Shown here: positions 1-15,563 of the stretch, one piece after another | Numbering within the stretch: position 1 is the stretch's first letter | Layout of the letters: each line of letters opens with the position of its first letter | IMG/VR virus record: IMGVR_UViG_3300042562_001768 | Length of the DNA stretch: 15,563 bases | Reading direction: 5' to 3' (one strand) | From: a virus | Notes under the pieces: generated by a model | The model's input: the letters and a program-made list of their open reading frames with translations, nothing else | What the model was told of the DNA's origin: nothing | Databases searched by the model: none | Translations under genes and position numbers: made by a program

Positions 1-127
1 GGGGGGGTGGGAGGTCTTTGGGGAGGTCATGCAAGCCATCGAACGGCACGATCCGCGAGCCCAGGGAGACCTGCCCGGACAGCGCCGCGTCGTGCGTCGG
101 CGCCTGGATGAACTCGGCATCAAGGAC
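1..127. repeat. Terminal direct repeat, copy 1; exact duplicate of 15437..15563 (circular-closure overlap or terminal redundancy)
   Basis: Read directly: the first 127 nt (ggggggg tgggaggtctttggggaggtcatgcaagcc ... ctcggcatcaaggac) recur exactly as the last 127 nt of the window. Confidence 0.9.
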
Positions 128-3674: not shown

Positions 3675-4796
3675 ATGAACCGTCTGTTCAAGCTCTTCGG
3701 CTTCAAGTCTGCACCGATGAATATCGGTTGGGACTCTCCGTCGAACTACGTCCGAGCAGACGTCGCGGCGCTGCCGTCCGTGCAGCGATGCATGAACCTG
3801 ATCGCGAACGATGTCGCGCGCTGCCCACTGGTGGTGCGCGACGCCGAGCAGATGATGGTCGAAGACTCGACGATCACCGCGCTCTTTACGAATGCGGCGC
3901 AGGCCGAGCTAAGCGGAACAGACTTCCGCCGATGGATGGCTTCGGAAGCGCTGCTGTCTGGCAACGCCTTCGCGCAGATCGTGACCGACTCGATGGGCCA
4001 GCCCGTCGCGTTGCGTCCGCTGGCGAGCTCAGCCGTCAGCCTGAACGAAGACAGTAACGGCGTGCTGCATTGGACCTACTCCGGCACCGAGATCGACTAC
4101 GCCTCGATGCTGCACTTCAAGGGTGCGCCGAGTCCAGGGAATCCGTACTGGGGCACAAGTGTCCTGAGCGCTGCGGCGACAAGCCTCGACGCAGTCGCGC
4201 AAACCGAAGCAGCCTGGAACGCATACACCCGGAGCGGCGGATACGGCAAGCTTGTCTTCAGTCATCCCGGCGCTCTCCAGCCTGCGACCCGCGACGCCAT
4301 GCGGACCGCCTTCATGTCGGGACACATGACTGCCGCCGCAGCGGGCACACCGATCTTCGTCGGCGAAGGGATGACCGTGACCGCGCTCTCGCCGTCGTGG
4401 GGCAAGGACATGATCGAGCTCCGCGCCGCGGGCGCGCGCGTGGTCGCGAACATGTTCGGCGTACCAGCCGCGTACCTCGACATGAGCGAGGCGCGCACGC
4501 AACCAGAGATCGCACAGTCGTACGTCTCGTCGTGCTTAGAAATCTGGGCCACGACCTGGGAAGCGGAGATCAGTAACAAGCTCTTGCGACCTGGTCTTCG
4601 TGTTCGTTGGGACTGGTCGCCTGTCTTGGAAGGAGACTTCCGAACCGCTGGCAAGGCGTACGGAAAGTTCGTCGAGGTCGGCGTGCTCAGTCCGAACGAC
4701 GTCCGCGTTCGCCTTGGCTACTCGCCGCTGCCTGGTCTCTGGGATCCGAGGCCAGTGATGAGTGGCATCACCATCGAATCGGACGGTCTGCAATGA
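3675..4796 (+). CDS. Portal protein (HK97-like family)
   Basis: 373-aa ORF directly between terminase and prohead protease; MNRLFKLFGFKSAPMNIGWDSPSNYV... First in-frame ATG after the terminase stop; the ORF-track start at 3288 lies inside terminase. No clear Shine-Dalgarno, so the start is uncertain (alternative ATG at 3717). Confidence 0.8.
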   Translation: MNRLFKLFGFKSAPMNIGWDSPSNYVRADVAALPSVQRCMNLIANDVARCPLVVRDAEQMMVEDSTITALFTNAAQAELSGTDFRRWMASEALLSGNAFAQIVTDSMGQPVALRPLASSAVSLNEDSNGVLHWTYSGTEIDYASMLHFKGAPSPGNPYWGTSVLSAAATSLDAVAQTEAAWNAYTRSGGYGKLVFSHPGALQPATRDAMRTAFMSGHMTAAAAGTPIFVGEGMTVTALSPSWGKDMIELRAAGARVVANMFGVPAAYLDMSEARTQPEIAQSYVSSCLEIWATTWEAEISNKLLRPGLRVRWDWSPVLEGDFRTAGKAYGKFVEVGVLSPNDVRVRLGYSPLPGLWDPRPVMSGITIESDGLQ

Positions 4797-6403
4797 TGCG
4801 AGAACTCCGCGCACAACTGGCACCGACTACCGACGGGACGGTCCGCGGATACGCGGCGCTGTTCGACTCTTGGTCGCTGCCGATCACCGAGCGCGGACGC
4901 ACGTTCCGCGAACGCATCAAGCCGGGCGCACTACAGCCGGACGGGAACGTCTCACTGTGGTGGATGCACGACCACACCGACCCACTCGCGAACACGCGCA
5001 GCGGATCGCTCACGATTACAGAGGACGCGAAGGGGATCGCATTCGTAGCCGACTTGGGTACGAGCGCGCGCGCGGACGAGATCCGCGACCTCATTCGCCG
5101 CGGGGTGGTCGACCAGATGTCGATCGGCTTCGTCGCACTCTCAGATATCTGGGACGGCAATACGTCCCGCACGATCACTAAGGCCACGCTCCATGAGGTG
5201 AGTTTGGTCGAATCGGCTGCGTACCCCGGTACGTCAGCAACCGTCCGCAACCACCAAAGGAAACCCGCTATGTCCGTCAAAGAAGATCGTGCTCGCATCG
5301 CCGAGCTCAACGCTGAATACAACACCGCTACCGATGAGCGTCAGTTCGCCATCATGGACGAAGTCGCAGAGTGTGAGGAGCGCATCGCTGGCGCCCAGGC
5401 TGCATTCACCAACCGCGCCGCCACACCGTTGGCAGTCGCACCGTCGGCACCGCTTGCCGTCGTTCGTCGCATCACGCCTCCAGTCCGTGACGAGCAGCGC
5501 GAGTGGTTCCGCACTGGCTTCAAGCAGAACCGATCCATCGGTCTGAGCGTGACGGGTGGCAACGCTACCGCCGGGCAAACTTTGCCGACCCTGAGCGGTG
5601 AGTTCATCAAGGCGCTCGACCAAGAGTCCGTGATGCGTAGCCTCGCAACCGTCGAGACCCGTGGACTCGATACCGATATCCAAGTGATCGGCACGCGCCA
5701 GACCGCTGTTCTGCTGGCAGAAAAGGCGGCGTACACATCGACCGACTTCACCGCGACCAAGCTCTCTTTCAAGAGCTACAAGTCCGGCGCGCTGACCGAC
5801 GTCACGGAAGAGGCCTTGCAGGACACCGTGTGGGATGTTGCGAGTCAGGTAGTCAGTGAACACGGTCGCGCTCACTCGCGACTCTGGGAGAACTACTACG
5901 TAAACGGTACCGGCACTTCCCAGCCGCAAGGCGCGTTTGCTGCGACCTGGACAACGACGTACACCACGGCGGCTGTTGGCTTGCCAACGGTGGCGGACTT
6001 GGTCACGGCTGCGTACAAGTTGCCAACCCCGTACCAGGCGAACGCGTCCTGGCTCATGCACTCAACTGTTTGGGCTGCGGTCGTCGGCAGTGCGGCCAGC
6101 GGCAAGTACCTCCTGAACGGTGAGAACGGGAACATCCTCAAGGACGGGGCCGTCGCTCTGTTCCTCGGCAAGCCTGTCTACCTCAGCGAGTGGGCACCAT
6201 CGGCAGCAACCGCTGCTACGGTGTCGTGCCTGTACGGTGACTTCAAGGCGGGCTACCGAATCATCGACCGCTCGATGCTGAGCTTCACCGTTGATGATGT
6301 GTCCCAGATGTCTAACGGACTCATCCGCTACACCAGTCGTATGCGCTCCGACGCCAAGGCCGTCGACGCGACCGCGATTGTCCCGGTCGTCATCAAGACC
6401 TGA
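4793..6403 (+). CDS. Prohead (capsid maturation) protease fused in frame to HK97-type major capsid protein; internal ribosome-binding site and ATG at 5270 may also give stand-alone capsid protein
   Basis: ATG at 4793 overlaps the portal stop (ATGA). The N-terminal ~159 aa (VRGYAALFDS...WWMHDHTD...VDQMSIGFVALSD...LHEVSLVESAAYPGT) match the HK97 prohead protease pattern. From MSVKEDRARIAELNAEY onward it is a coiled-coil delta region followed by a capsid-protein-like body ending ...DATAIVPVVIKT. No stop codon separates the two parts. AAGGA at 5257-5261 precedes the in-frame ATG at 5270. Confidence 0.85.
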   Translation: MMRELRAQLAPTTDGTVRGYAALFDSWSLPITERGRTFRERIKPGALQPDGNVSLWWMHDHTDPLANTRSGSLTITEDAKGIAFVADLGTSARADEIRDLIRRGVVDQMSIGFVALSDIWDGNTSRTITKATLHEVSLVESAAYPGTSATVRNHQRKPAMSVKEDRARIAELNAEYNTATDERQFAIMDEVAECEERIAGAQAAFTNRAATPLAVAPSAPLAVVRRITPPVRDEQREWFRTGFKQNRSIGLSVTGGNATAGQTLPTLSGEFIKALDQESVMRSLATVETRGLDTDIQVIGTRQTAVLLAEKAAYTSTDFTATKLSFKSYKSGALTDVTEEALQDTVWDVASQVVSEHGRAHSRLWENYYVNGTGTSQPQGAFAATWTTTYTTAAVGLPTVADLVTAAYKLPTPYQANASWLMHSTVWAAVVGSAASGKYLLNGENGNILKDGAVALFLGKPVYLSEWAPSAATAATVSCLYGDFKAGYRIIDRSMLSFTVDDVSQMSNGLIRYTSRMRSDAKAVDATAIVPVVIKT

Positions 6404-10611: not shown

Positions 10612-11111
10612 CGTACGAATGGCCGATCTTTACCGAAGGGCTTTACGGCAAGGCGAACGCCTCGGTGTGCAACGCCTGGACGCAATCGGCGCGCATCGTG
10701 CTATCAAGCGCGGAGGCGCTCGACTGGGCGAACCGAACGAAAGACGGTATGGACCAGCCCGATCGGTGGCTTGCGAAGGTCACGGGCGCAGCAGTCATCA
10801 GCAGTAATCGCTGGTCGTACACCTTTGTGCCTGTCATTATCTCCGGCACGACTACCGCGAACCTATCCGGCACTGGCCAGGCTGGCTCCGGCGCCTTGAA
10901 CTTGCGCGAGATGAACAACACCACAATCCTCGCGGATGGTTCGCCGCTCGCGAGTGGCGTGACCATCGGTCCCGTCGGCTCCACCTGGGGCGGATCGAGT
11001 TGGTCTACGAGTTCGCTGACTGGAATCGTCGAGATGAACGTCGAACATAAAGCCGACGGCAGCGTCGCGTATTGGTTTTCCTCACCGAACCCTGGGAGAT
11101 GTGCAACATGA
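10608..11111 (+). CDS. Minor tail protein, Gly/Ser/Thr-rich
   Basis: 167 aa from ATG 10608 (ATGA overlap); the ORF-track start at 10566 lies inside the previous gene. Low-complexity GTTTANLSGTGQAGSG and SSWSTSS segments are typical of fibre-like proteins. Confidence 0.5.
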   Translation: MTYEWPIFTEGLYGKANASVCNAWTQSARIVLSSAEALDWANRTKDGMDQPDRWLAKVTGAAVISSNRWSYTFVPVIISGTTTANLSGTGQAGSGALNLREMNNTTILADGSPLASGVTIGPVGSTWGGSSWSTSSLTGIVEMNVEHKADGSVAYWFSSPNPGRCAT

Positions 11112-12415
11112 AATACGACGTAATCCGGTCATACTGGCCAGCTCCGATCTACGACACGCCTCTTCCTGCTGGCGTTTATGGCAGTATGCGGGCGTTCAAC
11201 TTCATACGGGAAACCACTACCAAAGGGCTAGACGTAGCAATCGTTGGAGACAGCAACACGGGCTACAACGCTCCGAACGATGGCGGTTACGTTCAAGGCA
11301 TTTCCTATGGTTTGGATGTTGCGTTCCCTTCAAATGCTTACGCCACCGCTACGTTTACGCTGATGAACGAAGGGAACTCTGCTGGCTACAAGTGCTCAAT
11401 GCAAGGCGCATCACTGGCCAGCGCACCGGGTGGCTACGTTTCGGGAAAAGCGAGCGGCGACGCGGGTATTAAAACTTTCTTTGACCGTGGTAGTGGAAGT
11501 TGGAGTGATGCGGGCGGCGCGAACGCAGGGACGTACACGGATTTCCCATGGCTTGAATCGGGAAATCAAACCGAGAACATTAACCGTGGTATGACAATCG
11601 ACTCAGATCACCCCATCGGCGTAAACAACGCGCTCCGATATAGAGTCCTGCGGAGTCAGACCACAACGGGCGGCAGTTTCTATATGCGCGTTCGTCTGAA
11701 TGGTGGCTCATATGCACCGATTGCCACATCGGCTTCGATCCCTTGCAGTGGCGCAACTAATCTAGTTGCATCAGAACTACCGATCACTGTTGGCACTCGC
11801 AATCTGTCCTTGGCTTCATTCTGGAGCATCCAAAACGCAGTTGGTCTTTACACGGTCGGCCCGTGGGGCGGTTTGTTGCAATCGATGTACCGCCCAACAG
11901 TTGGTTGGGCAGTGGATGCGATGTATTTCATGGGTGGTGCAACCATCACCGCCATCGATACAGACTTCGCCGCAGCAAACACCGCTGGGTATCTCACCGC
12001 CACCATGCTTGCCGAGTATTACAACCGACAACTAGCGGCGGGTGGGGATGGTCGCATCGTTGTTTGGATTCAAGGCGGAGCCAACCAAAGCGACTGGACA
12101 TCGAGTCCAAGCACATGGCCAGCAAAGTGGGAATCCATTATGAATTACGTCCGCACAGCAGCCACATACGCCGCCATACCTTCGGAGAAGTTGGCATTCG
12201 TTGCGATGTGTACGCATGACATCACGGGTTATGACTTTGCTTCTAGGCGAGCCGCGCTCATCGCATTGACTACTGCAAACCCTGATCTAACGGTAGTCAA
12301 CATTCCGGAGATTATTCCGTTTGCTTCTTACTCTGCCTATGCAAGCGGAGCGCACTTGTCTAAGACCGGATACCAAACGATTGGCAATGCCATTATTCAA
12401 CGGATGCTTTCTTGA
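11108..12415 (+). CDS. SGNH/GDSL-like hydrolase (esterase/deacetylase-like) protein, tail-associated or lysis enzyme
   Basis: 435 aa from ATG 11108 (ATGA overlap). Block-I-like VAIVGDSNTGYNA near the N-terminus and a block-V-like ASGAHLSKTGYQTIGNAI near the C-terminus, with a long Gly/Ser/Thr-rich insert between. The Asp three residues before the His is not conserved (SGAH), so catalytic integrity is uncertain. G+C visibly lower than the head genes. Confidence 0.45.
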   Translation: MKYDVIRSYWPAPIYDTPLPAGVYGSMRAFNFIRETTTKGLDVAIVGDSNTGYNAPNDGGYVQGISYGLDVAFPSNAYATATFTLMNEGNSAGYKCSMQGASLASAPGGYVSGKASGDAGIKTFFDRGSGSWSDAGGANAGTYTDFPWLESGNQTENINRGMTIDSDHPIGVNNALRYRVLRSQTTTGGSFYMRVRLNGGSYAPIATSASIPCSGATNLVASELPITVGTRNLSLASFWSIQNAVGLYTVGPWGGLLQSMYRPTVGWAVDAMYFMGGATITAIDTDFAAANTAGYLTATMLAEYYNRQLAAGGDGRIVVWIQGGANQSDWTSSPSTWPAKWESIMNYVRTAATYAAIPSEKLAFVAMCTHDITGYDFASRRAALIALTTANPDLTVVNIPEIIPFASYSAYASGAHLSKTGYQTIGNAIIQRMLS

Positions 12416-12714
12416 TCCACCTAGCGGTCGTCATCCTCACGTTCCTCCTGTCAGCCTGTGCATCGAGCACGGCGCAGATCGCGCACGCAGCCAACGCGTC
12501 CCGCGTCTCGGTCGGCGCCGCGCGCGGACACCTGGTCGCCGCCAGCGCGGAGCTCGACCAGATAGAGGCTCAATGCCAGGTGGTGAGCGAGCAGATCCCG
12601 TACGTCTCTGATGATGTGCCGAGCTACATGTCGGTTCTTCAGTACGCCAGTGTTGCCGTCGTCGTCTTCGTCGTTGGCAGTCTCATCTACACCTACATAC
12701 CGCGGAAGAAATGA
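12412..12714 (+). CDS. Membrane protein with N-terminal lipoprotein-type signal (lipobox LSAC) and C-terminal transmembrane helix; lysis-associated candidate
   Basis: TTG start overlapping the upstream stop (TTGA). MIHLAVVILTFLLSAC ASST... has a hydrophobic h-region followed by L-S-A-C. The C-terminus ASVAVVVFVVGSLIYTYI PRKK is a hydrophobic helix with a basic tail. No in-frame ATG near the N-terminus, so the start is uncertain. Confidence 0.4.
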   Translation: MIHLAVVILTFLLSACASSTAQIAHAANASRVSVGAARGHLVAASAELDQIEAQCQVVSEQIPYVSDDVPSYMSVLQYASVAVVVFVVGSLIYTYIPRKK

Positions 12715-12839
12715 TGCTGACCCAAACTCAATATCTGATATGGCTCGTTGCGATTCTCGTCACGACAGCGGCTGCGGGGTGCCGAGTTGGCGCCACTTGG
12801 TCGACCTTCAAACATCAAACAAAAAAGGCTCGCAAATGA
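12711..12839 (+). CDS. Small single-pass membrane protein (42 aa), holin-like candidate
   Basis: My translation is MMLTQTQYLIWLVAILVTTAAAGCRVGATWSTFKHQTKKARK: one hydrophobic helix and a basic C-terminus. ATG overlaps the upstream stop and the next start overlaps its stop. Below the ORF-track length cutoff. Confidence 0.3.
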   Translation: MMLTQTQYLIWLVAILVTTAAAGCRVGATWSTFKHQTKKARK

Positions 12840-12949
12840 TTACGCAAGCAGACCTCTCCAGTACCCTCGGCTCAATTTTCTTCGCGACCAGTCTCGGATT
12901 CGTGGGCTTGATACTTGGTTACATCCTGTGCCGCCGGGCAAGCAAATGA
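12836..12949 (+). CDS. Small single-pass membrane protein (37 aa), holin-like candidate
   Basis: MITQADLSSTLGSIFFATSLGFVGLILGYILCRRASK, the C-terminal part of ORF-track ORF 12611..12949, whose N-terminus overlaps the previous genes. ATGA overlaps at both ends. Confidence 0.3.
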   Translation: MITQADLSSTLGSIFFATSLGFVGLILGYILCRRASK

Positions 12950-13707
12950 GTCTGCTTCGGTGTTGCTGCGGTAGCGCAACCTGTGCATCCTGTCCATCGT
13001 TACCAGGCGACTGGTCGACGCGGGACTATCGTTTGTTCATACCAGCAGTCAAGCCTGTTGGATATGGTCGCGCGAGTTCAGTGCCGAGCGGTCTATACAC
13101 CGGGCCCTGCACGCCAGCGGATCCGTACTGGAACTTGGCAGAGTGTGCATTCGACTTTACCACTGGCTCGCTGTACTACGTCTATTCTCGACTCGCAAAC
13201 TGCGAGCCCTTTCCAGAAGCTTGCGGCGAAGTCTTAAAGTTCCCGCGGGAGATCGGTGGCTTCTATACGGACAACCTTGTCCCGTCGATTACGTTCTCTA
13301 CGCAGATTGCCACGCGCACATACAACCAAACAGGCGACGTTTCATATTTCATCCAGGCGGACGTATCGCGATGCTGGGGCGGATGGGCTGGGTGTGAGAG
13401 TTGCACCAACCGAACCAAGGTCAGCCTCTACTACTTTTTTGGCAACAACTTCACATACAACGACAACTGCACAAACCATCCTGCTGGTGTTACAAAGACT
13501 GTGGAGCTGGAGTATCTCTCGAATCCTTACGCCGCAAGTGAAGGCATCGGAAAAACTTGCTACCTCAGAACCTGGAAAGTGAGCCCTGGGCCGACAGCCT
13601 TCTGCTACCCGGAAACAGGTCAATATGGCTGCGCTGATCCTTGCGTCCTTGGATCGTGTTCGTTCTTTGGATCAAGCAACTTTCCCTCAACGGTAACAAT
13701 CGTATGA
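12946..13707 (+). CDS. Cysteine-rich protein (18 Cys in 253 aa), unknown function
   Basis: ATG at 12946 overlaps the upstream stop (ATGA); the ORF-track start at 12748 is an upstream extension. N-terminal MSLLRCCCGSATCASC cluster and Cys spread through an aromatic/Asn/Thr-rich body. G+C at third codon positions visibly lower than the head genes. Confidence 0.6.
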   Translation: MSLLRCCCGSATCASCPSLPGDWSTRDYRLFIPAVKPVGYGRASSVPSGLYTGPCTPADPYWNLAECAFDFTTGSLYYVYSRLANCEPFPEACGEVLKFPREIGGFYTDNLVPSITFSTQIATRTYNQTGDVSYFIQADVSRCWGGWAGCESCTNRTKVSLYYFFGNNFTYNDNCTNHPAGVTKTVELEYLSNPYAASEGIGKTCYLRTWKVSPGPTAFCYPETGQYGCADPCVLGSCSFFGSSNFPSTVTIV

Positions 13708-13910
13708 AGATCCCAGGACAGATTGAGGCGTCGGAACATCAACCGCCCGCGCGCATAGGTCTCGGCGACGCCGTGGCAGCAGCCACAAAGGCTGTCGGGG
13801 TCAAGCCTTGCGGCGGATGTGCCAAGCGCCAGGCGGCGATGAACCGGGCGACGCCAGCCTGGGCGCGGCGGGCGCTTGGTTGGTGGTCGCGGCATTTCGG
13901 TGTACCGTGA
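13704..13910 (+). CDS. Small protein (68 aa) with a GDAVAAATKAVGVKPCGGCAKRQAAMNR motif
   Basis: ATG at 13704 overlaps the upstream stop (ATGA). The CxxC-containing segment looks like a conserved small-protein motif, but I cannot name the family. Confidence 0.45.
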   Translation: MKIPGQIEASEHQPPARIGLGDAVAAATKAVGVKPCGGCAKRQAAMNRATPAWARRALGWWSRHFGVP

Positions 13911-15027: not shown

Positions 15028-15563
15028 TGCGCGTCGCCAAGCAACACATCCACATGGGAGAGATCTTCCGCTGCTCCGGACTTGCTCCGATGCAGCGTTA
15101 CCTACTCATGGCAATAGCCGATTACGGGCTCCCCGCCTGGCCGTCCCAGGCGCGCCTCGCAAACAAAACTGGACTCTCGCGATCCAGCATCAACACGATG
15201 GTGTCAGAGTTACGTCGCCTCGGCGTCCTTACGACGGAAGGTCGGGGCAAGTCTTTGACCTATCGAATTGACCTGTCTGGGAAGGGTGAGGTGTCGTCCG
15301 CAGCGACACCTCACCTGTCGTCCACAGCGACACCACCTGTCGTCCACAGCGACAGCAGGTGTCGCCCACAGCGACAGGGATCAGAACTCTCCAAGGAACT
15401 CTCCAATGAACCCTCCCAGTCCGCGGTGGAAACCGCGGGGGGGTGGGAGGTCTTTGGGGAGGTCATGCAAGCCATCGAACGGCACGATCCGCGAGCCCAG
15501 GGAGACCTGCCCGGACAGCGCCGCGTCGTGCGTCGGCGCCTGGATGAACTCGGCATCAAGGAC
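15027..15563 (+). CDS. Winged-helix DNA-binding protein, putative replication initiator with embedded iterons; truncated by the window edge and completed by 2..280 (229 aa in total)
   Basis: ATG at 15027 (TGATG overlap with erf stop). N-terminus MQRYLLMAIADYGLPAWPSQARLANKTGLSRSSINTMVSELRRLGVLTTEG is HTH-like. The frame is open to the window end and continues through the duplicated 127 nt. The Ser/Thr/Pro-rich linker is encoded by the iteron array. Confidence 0.65.
   Translation, partial: MRVAKQHIHMGEIFRCSGLAPMQRYLLMAIADYGLPAWPSQARLANKTGLSRSSINTMVSELRRLGVLTTEGRGKSLTYRIDLSGKGEVSSAATPHLSSTATPPVVHSDSRCRPQRQGSELSKELSNEPSQSAVETAGGWEVFGEVMQAIERHDPRAQGDLPGQRRVVRRRLDELGIKD
15285..15376. promoter_or_regulatory. 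Array of four 17-bp palindromic iteron-like repeats (tgtcgYccRcagcgaca), candidate origin of replication or operator
   Basis: Units at 15292-15308, 15316-15332, 15338-15354 and 15360-15376, spaced 24/22/22 bp. Each is an inverted repeat tgtcg-N7-cgaca. The first is extended to 12-bp arms (ggtgaggtgtcg / cgacacctcacc, 15285-15315). Followed by an AT-richer 11-bp direct repeat gaactctccaa x2 at 15384-15406. Confidence 0.55.

Follow-up and report, generated by a model that had tools for sequence, protein, structure and literature searches.

What does a 253-aa protein with 7.1% cysteine do for a tailed phage whose whole genome is about 15.5 kb? The question is raised by a gene at positions 12946-13707 of the viral record IMGVR_UViG_3300042562_001768 (IMG/VR), a stretch of 15,563 nucleotides that was analysed at its full length and is called the window here. 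A first-pass annotation had described the product as a Cys-rich, aromatic-rich protein matching no family known to it, encoded by an AT-richer gene just after a cluster of membrane-protein genes, and had suggested a novel lysis enzyme, a receptor-binding or adhesin module, or a toxin-like cargo. The evidence presented below points to a superfamily whose members have in common a short N-terminal Cys handle. The reading that we favour, with a probability of roughly 0.35, is that the product is an exchangeable, Cys-stapled module that binds the host envelope and is docked via this handle.

The description of the protein itself was borne out. The product opens with MSLLRCCCGSATCASC and contains 18 Cys (positions 6, 7, 8, 13, 16, 55, 67, 86, 93, 143, 150, 153, 175, 205, 220, 229, 233 and 238), together with 7.1% Tyr, 5.9% Phe and 2.0% Trp; it has a single Met and a single His. 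In core proteins of this genome Cys makes up 0.9% of residues, so that ∼2 Cys would be expected by chance in a protein of 253 aa. The gene has a GC content of 53.5%, and its GC content at third codon positions (GC3) is 0.59 as compared with 0.73–0.84 in head, tail and replication genes. Three membrane-protein genes do lie directly upstream, in a cassette with the order lipoTM, tmA, tmB, Cys-rich gene, p68. The ATG at 12946 shares bases with the TGA of tmB, a 37-aa transmembrane (TM) gene (ATGA), and the stop codon at 13705-13707 overlaps the ATG of p68, a 68-aa gene that is translationally coupled to the Cys-rich gene.

We conclude that the open reading frame (ORF) is a genuine, conserved core phage gene under purifying selection. 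The ratio of non-synonymous to synonymous substitution rates (dN/dS) was 0.16 between the window and the related genome L001, and 0.21 between L002 and L009. Full-length homologs at 21–95% identity retained key residues, and overlapping alternative ORFs at 12946-13707 had no comparable support. Relatives proved scarce: only 13 turned up when 1.84 billion representative proteins were searched exhaustively with a profile, and a second profile search added a few more. All homologs of the window family were encoded in this cassette, by phages of one kind, each ∼15 kb.

As judged from sequence comparison, the window gene is one member of an undescribed ‘CCC-handle’ superfamily that occupies a fixed late-gene slot in tailed phages of ∼15–16 kb. 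The first-pass annotation had noted the early CCC run; what it could not see is that M-x4-CCC is a conserved handle common to many unrelated slot proteins. A scan of IMG/VR with a p68 profile gave 80 loci, and in 72 of them a slot ORF of 150 aa or more could be placed upstream. In 59 of the 72, the ORF was called directly, beginning with M-x(3-6)-CC at a start codon that overlapped the upstream stop; the other 13 comprised three that were cut by contig ends and ten with an internal x-CCC at the evident true start. Slot ORFs from IMG/VR and other collected family members together gave 78 distinct handle-bearing sequences, and slot proteins ranged from 253 to 643 aa. The Cys run begins at residue 5–7 in all 78 and is a full triplet in 72; it is preceded by residues rich in Arg, Lys, Leu and Phe, and Gly comes next in 40. 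Among the examples are a protein of 428–429 aa with 39 Cys that starts MSLKKCCCGGG, and one of ∼310 aa with 27 Cys that starts M/V-RFFCCCQG. The surveyed slot genes start with GTG or TTG in 76% of cases, which, together with the stop–start overlap, would be signals of low-copy expression. Several gene calls were N-terminally short. For P0020 and P0021 (and apparently P0018), the true GTG start gives back M-x4-CCC; the public calls at L013 9845-10645 and L014 9845-10636 are short because their true start is a GTG that shares bases with the stop of the preceding gene. A Tat or Sec signal in the handle was considered and rejected, the N-terminus being too short and not hydrophobic, and RR not being conserved.

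Beyond the handle, the slot proteins diverge completely in many cases. With their first 12 residues removed they fell into 12 BLAST clusters. Profile–profile comparison connected the window family with just two groups, at probabilities of 81% and 86%; all other pairs of groups aligned only over the first 8–12 residues or not at all, and at least 8 of the 12 groups compared in this way were mutually unrelated beyond the first ∼10 residues. The handle is the only part common to these otherwise unrelated families, many of which also end in an alternating beta-strand (FPSTVTIV, FPSTITLT, FPSTIAVG, PPSITVF or PPTYITVV). Their composition is distinctive. Median Cys content over the 78 sequences was 7.0%, as compared with 0.9% in core proteins, and slot proteins were also richer in Pro (8.3 versus 4.7%), Tyr (5.0 versus 2.7%) and Asn (4.9 versus 3.0%), and depleted in Lys, Arg, Ala, Leu and Met. 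The slot was occupied in every genome examined, where it takes up 5–12% of a minimal ∼15.5-kb genome, and a check of co-occurrence, as the first-pass annotation had proposed, found the same neighbours in every related genome examined. No description of CCC-handle proteins was found in the literature searched; the ‘cysteine-rich proteins’ of Asgard viruses are HNH-like nucleases and are unrelated.

The body of the protein was modelled with AlphaFold2 (AF2) from an alignment of 17 sequences. This gave a confident single domain, with a predicted local distance difference test (pLDDT) score of 89.8 and a predicted template modelling (pTM) score of 0.86. The model has seven long beta-strands (residues 75–83, 92–100, 121–128, 132–144, 156–172, 177–192 and 204–215) and well-ordered coil at both ends; residues 1–8, which include the Cys triplet, are disordered (pLDDT < 50). 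The 253-aa body would thus be a Cys-stapled all-beta domain without a known fold match. Profile searches against Pfam, PHROGs, NCBIfam and PADLOC gave no match for the window protein, Pfam gave none in 20 family members or in 10 representatives of other slot families, and Foldseek searches of BFVD and the PDB returned nothing significant. The only sequence-profile match in the PDB, a topoisomerase-associated factor, was at noise level (E 0.16–0.57) and was rejected. Searches of 50,697 phage genomes by megablast and tblastn, with the window, the Cys-rich protein, p68 and lipoTM as queries, found nothing, and a pattern scan of 185,579 species genomes did not find the window family. The first-pass annotation, which could not match the protein to any family it knew, had called for profile and structure searches; these leave the protein unmatched, and they also found no fold with a cytoplasmic role.

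Conservation within the window family indicates which residues matter. All 18 Cys were unchanged in six full-length metagenomic homologs at 49–95% identity. Across 20–21 members, down to 21% identity, the invariant residues were M1, C6, C7, C16, P20, R26, Y28, P33, C67, C86, R142, C143, N155, C175, Y190, L207, C220 and P247, a set without Asp, Glu, His, Ser or Lys. C55 and C93 were lost jointly in three members, as expected of a disulfide pair. C13, C150 and C153 were present or absent as a set, and the two CxxC motifs of the protein are C13xxC16 and C150xxC153; Cys233 was replaced by His in two members. Among 15 members of a 90% cluster no Cys varied, and the multi-allelic sites 160, 164 and 183 fell on a pair of neighbouring long strands. 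Disulfides, or metal binding, had been suggested from the even Cys count and the Cys spacing. As an argument for disulfides this is weak, since distant members carry 11–15 Cys, often an odd count. Total Cys was odd in 51 of the 78 distinct slot proteins, and counted by group (23 odd versus 15 even) parity was not significant.

The bodies are hypervariable and, as identity matrices for several genes show, are exchanged horizontally between phage backbones. L012 and L013 are 82% identical in the capsid protein and 85% in lipoTM, but only 35% in the Cys-rich protein. Conversely, L013 and L014 share only 34% identity in the capsid and 74% in the Cys-rich protein, and the window and L002 share 32% in a 317-aa tail protein and 61% in the Cys-rich protein. 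The tree of the Cys-rich gene is, on these sequences, incongruent with those of head and tail genes. In every genome the GC3 of the Cys-rich gene was below genome level, as in genes for receptor-binding proteins (RBPs). Within window positions 11000-13800, and likewise in L002, L010 and L014, GC3 drops in the RBP gene, tmA, tmB and the Cys-rich gene and not in the intervening lipoTM, a pattern that suggests mosaic acquisition from lower-GC relatives.

An envelope-binding module is favoured because of this hypervariability and horizontal exchange, the RBP-like GC3 and the extracellular type of composition; binding is preferred over catalysis because the invariant residues include none of Asp, Glu, His, Ser and Lys. 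The body would bind a variable component of the host cell envelope rather than act as an enzyme, and it would act outside the reducing cytoplasm, either as an accessory adhesin borne by the virion or after release at lysis. There the scattered Cys may oxidize to disulfides and make the body rigid. The Cys triplet would be a docking handle, joined to a conserved partner by metal–thiolate coordination or a disulfide bridge, or possibly serving as a lipid anchor. The partner might be p68 (through its CxxC), tmA or tmB (through the juxtamembrane Cys) or g168, a 168-aa protein of the tail-tip region, encoded upstream of the RBP gene, whose C-terminal Cys is invariant. Among the three original guesses, the receptor-binding or adhesin module is thus the best fit in its variability, exchange, GC3, composition and lack of conserved catalytic-type residues.

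Several observations weigh against this reading. No likeness to a known RBP, fibre or spike, in fold or sequence, was found by profile and Foldseek searches. Three membrane-protein genes stand between the Cys-rich gene and the tail genes, and the gene is translationally coupled on both sides within a lysis-like cassette, which argues for a role at the envelope of the infected cell. A variable RBP locus is already present upstream, and between the window and L008 the RBP has been replaced while the Cys-rich protein stays 99% identical. The endolysin function that the clade seems to lack could belong to the Cys-rich slot. Neither a signal peptide nor a TM segment was detected in the 253-aa protein, in which no 19-residue window was hydrophobic enough (by hydropathy only; no dedicated predictor was run). 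Finally, C13xxC16 and C150xxC153 co-vary in a manner that would be like that of a zinc site.

Features of the cassette and its surroundings are collected in Table 1.

Table 1. Positions of the Cys-rich gene, its terminal motifs and neighbouring genes in the window.
Feature	Position	Strand	Basis or remarks
Cys-rich ‘CCC-handle’ gene	12946-13707	+	ORF and composition, homologs, dN/dS, AF2 model
N-terminal handle M-S-L-L-R-C-C-C-G	12946-12972	+	Cys triplet codons 12961-12969
C-terminal beta-strand motif F-P-S-T-V-T-I-V	13681-13704	+	Strand 249–252, high pLDDT; P247 invariant in family
g168, 168 aa	10608-11111		Between 317-aa tail protein and RBP; invariant N98, R100, E101, N104, D110
Variable tail fibre/RBP, 435 aa	11108-12415	+	Replaced in L008; GC3 0.54
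lipoTM, 100 aa	12412-12714	+	N-terminal lipoprotein signal (LLSAC), C-terminal TM then PRKK
tmA, 42 aa	12711-12839	+	Single-pass, conserved ...A-G-C after TM, very basic tail
tmB, 37 aa	12836-12949	+	Single-pass, glycine zipper TM, basic C-terminus (...ILCRRASK)
p68, 68 aa	13704-13910	+	Motif GLGDxVAxATKAxGxKPCxxCxxRxxxxN..TPxW; phrog_32048, function unknown

The membrane proteins of the cassette resemble parts of a lysis system. lipoTM, which has a weak NCBIfam lipoprotein match and is kept in all related loci, would from its architecture alone be a unimolecular spanin (u-spanin-like). tmA may be holin- or antiholin-like; a lipoprotein signal was considered for it and rejected, since it is without a basic n-region and its strongly basic C-tail argues for an N-out/C-in topology. 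tmB is putatively holin-like from its predicted topology, and in 50 of the 58 tmB proteins recovered a Cys lies among the final nine residues (..Y/W-C-R/S-x-K). In tmA as in tmB, a conserved Cys lies where the membrane is predicted to meet the cytoplasm. A frameshift fusion of tmB to the slot protein was rejected, because neither form of the junction, AAATGA or AAGTGA, contains a slippery sequence. The p68 family comprises at least 2,296 homologs, many on contigs of 15–16.7 kb and others in larger low-GC phages such as L094, where the context of the homolog carried no functional annotation.

Upstream of the cassette, the RBP was swapped between two phages that are otherwise ∼98% identical (window 11108-12415 versus L008 7930-9234), with only a 20-aa N-terminal stretch in common, and related genomes hold one to three different genes at this position. 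The 435-aa RBP had no family match in Pfam, PHROGs or NCBIfam. It carries a GDS(N)T motif that we take to be SGNH-like (esterase) and that no profile confirmed; the 505-aa RBP of L042 shares the GDSNT motif. g168 has an invariant near-C-terminal Cys (..NPxRC) and no match in the PDB or Pfam; it could be a tail-tip enzyme or, as noted, the docking partner of the handle.

The same cassette supports other readings of the Cys-rich protein. It might be an effector or regulator of lysis tethered to the holin-like pair, its basic Cys cluster being held at the cytoplasmic face near the Cys of tmA and tmB or the CxxC of p68. On membrane permeabilization it would be freed to act non-enzymatically on the envelope, or it might time the holin as an antiholin does. 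The invariant order lipoTM–tmA–tmB–slot–p68, the slot start that overlaps the tmB stop in 59 of 72 loci, the terminal Cys in most tmB proteins and the conserved GC in tmA are all consistent with such a role. So is the order in L012 and L013, where the late operon ends with the cassette, the next gene after p68 being on the minus strand. Yet position is weak evidence here, because overlapping genes in a compact genome freeze synteny; eight of the 58 tmB proteins are without the terminal Cys, and a hypervariable protein of 250–640 aa with an extracellular-like composition is not what one expects of a regulator. We regard a tethered effector as having a small but appreciable chance of being correct.

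Horizontal exchange and hypervariability of the bodies, together with the association of the gene with membrane proteins, would also suit a factor in superinfection exclusion, anti-defence or another form of host takeover, or a toxin released at lysis, with an arms race as the source of variation. Roles of this kind are hard to reconcile with a slot that is filled in every genome at a cost of 5–12% of ∼15.5 kb. The gene belongs to the end of the late operon, not to the early genes, and neither PADLOC nor any other search gave a match. Such a role is unlikely, and so is the toxin-like cargo suggested in the first-pass annotation.

Next to be weighed is a cytoplasmic metal-binding protein, structural or regulatory, in which most of the Cys would be ligands of Zn or an Fe-S centre. 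It accords with the missing signal peptide, with the co-occurring CxxC pairs at 13–16 and 150–153, with the Cys233 to His replacement and with Cys totals that are often odd. The eight invariant Cys (67, 86, 143, 175, 220 and others) are widely dispersed, unlike typical cluster motifs, and they have no conserved His partners; no Pfam zinc-finger match rose above noise among 20 family members. The composition is also unlike that of cytoplasmic proteins, and hypervariability would go unexplained, so that we consider a metalloprotein rather improbable. A more speculative proposal, about as doubtful, is that the CCC-handle proteins form a new class of envelope effectors that replaces the classical endolysin. 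They would do so by thiol–disulfide attack on, or intercalation into, a proteinaceous wall layer cross-linked by disulfides. The Cys triplet would be the reactive group on a body rich in Cys, Pro, Thr and Tyr, and the bodies might diversify to track variable wall proteins; possible hosts would be Planctomycetota or other bacteria with Cys-rich envelopes.

The first-pass suggestion of a novel lysis enzyme has in its favour the position of the gene, within a holin/spanin-like cluster and universal in the clade. Furthermore, no gene of the window or of at least seven complete relatives (L012, L013, L014, L038, L040, L042 and L043) matched a known endolysin family, and no lysozyme, amidase or peptidase domain was found in them. 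Redox activation in an oxidizing periplasm can be imagined, for which P1 Lyz, where an N-terminal Cys controls activation of the endolysin, would be a precedent. However, the residues kept by all 21 members include no Asp, Glu or His, the slot holds at least eight unrelated bodies, no muralytic family was matched by any of 11 slot representatives, and the 253-aa protein gave no match to a hydrolase fold. A protein with many disulfides should, moreover, not pre-fold in the cytoplasm. An endolysin of a new type is thus distinctly improbable. That the ORF is a frame artefact or non-coding sequence, for which only its atypical GC1 < GC2 < GC3 pattern could be cited, is refuted by its full-length homologs, its dN/dS values and the confident AF2 model.

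The genome in which the Cys-rich gene resides is itself unusual. An exact direct repeat of 127 bp at the ends of the window (1-127 and 15437-15563) shows the assembly to be circular and complete, at 15,436 bp, which is among the smallest genomes for an HK97-type phage. All genes are on one strand. They begin with a PDDEXK/RusA-like nuclease, HNH, TerL, the portal protein and a fusion of prohead protease and major capsid protein (4793-6403), followed by an adaptor, a head-completion protein (HCP), a gp10-like protein and weak matches to tube and chaperone proteins. A 212-aa gene stands at the tape-measure position (assigned by position only, with no family match), and after it come conserved proteins of 317 and 168 aa, the 435-aa RBP, the cassette, and then Erf and other early genes. 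A scan for promoters and terminators gave counts at the level of shuffled sequence, so that no operon boundary was defined, and searches for tRNA genes and Rfam families were negative. The clade has genes of holin-like and u-spanin-like type but no recognisable endolysin. The L042 contig (33,269 bp) contains a ∼16.6-kb mini-phage genome twice in tandem, with the portal–capsid–HCP series repeated, and is either an assembly concatemer or a replication intermediate.

The closest cultured relative of the capsid protein is that of vB_KppS-Ant, a tail-less satellite-like element that was set aside as an analogue. Other capsid relatives come from contigs of metagenome-assembled genomes (MAGs), with 61% identity under the bin label Sandaracinus and a syntenic phage contig under Bradymonadia, and one p68 homolog is labelled Planctomycetota. 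In all, capsid or p68 relatives in L016, L017, L032 and P0130 are on MAG contigs labelled Sandaracinus, Bradymonadia, Planctomycetaceae and Planctomycetota. Coming only from the binning of small viral contigs, these are weak hints to a host in the Planctomycetota or Myxococcota. A lipoprotein with a C-terminal TM segment, as lipoTM is predicted to be, would fit a diderm host.

If the envelope-binding reading is correct, a very large, undescribed clade of minimal tailed phages uses a type of module not seen before, in which a handle of 8–10 residues is grafted onto unrelated bodies. Phages without a recognisable endolysin would then have a new way either to recognise the host or to leave the cell, and phage biology would gain no fewer than eight new protein families and one or more folds that appear to be new. 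The handle also provides a simple key for mining, M-x(3-5)-CCC right after a small TM gene, and poses a defined biochemical question, namely whether it clasps a metal, docks through a disulfide or is lipidated.

The architecture of the slot, a short Cys handle on many unrelated Cys-rich bodies, appears to be new; we can name no analogue for it, only partial likenesses. Phage RBPs and adhesins have exchangeable distal modules, as in T4 gp38, T5 pb5 and the C-terminus of lambda J. Like them, the slot proteins are products of a late gene with a hypervariable, exchanged body, a short conserved terminal element, no conserved catalytic residues and a low synonymous GC content. Unlike them, they match no such sequence or fold, contain 7% Cys, are encoded among membrane-protein rather than tail genes, and share only ∼8–10 residues across families instead of a whole docking domain. 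Signal-anchor-release (SAR) endolysins such as P1 Lyz have an N-terminal element with a regulatory Cys and various catalytic bodies. The slot proteins resemble these in belonging to a holin/spanin-type cassette, in the conserved Cys-bearing N-terminal element that precedes a variable body and in having no cleavable signal peptide. They differ in that the N-terminus is not a hydrophobic signal anchor, that no muralytic profile or fold was matched, and that no catalytic acid or His is conserved.

Eukaryotic S-acylated proteins, for their part, can be anchored to membranes by an N-terminal polybasic and Cys cluster, for example MLCCMRR in GAP-43. The handle recalls these anchors in its two to three Cys at 4–6 residues from the N-terminus, its basic and hydrophobic flanks and its TM neighbours with juxtamembrane Cys. 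We know of no cytoplasmic protein S-acyltransferase from bacteria or phages, and the similarity is no more than a resemblance. The body can also be compared with disulfide-rich extracellular beta proteins, such as thaumatin-like proteins and Cys-rich lectins. It shares with them an all-beta model, the co-varying pair C55/C93, and a composition high in Cys, Gly, Pro, Thr, Asn and Tyr and low in Lys, Met and His.

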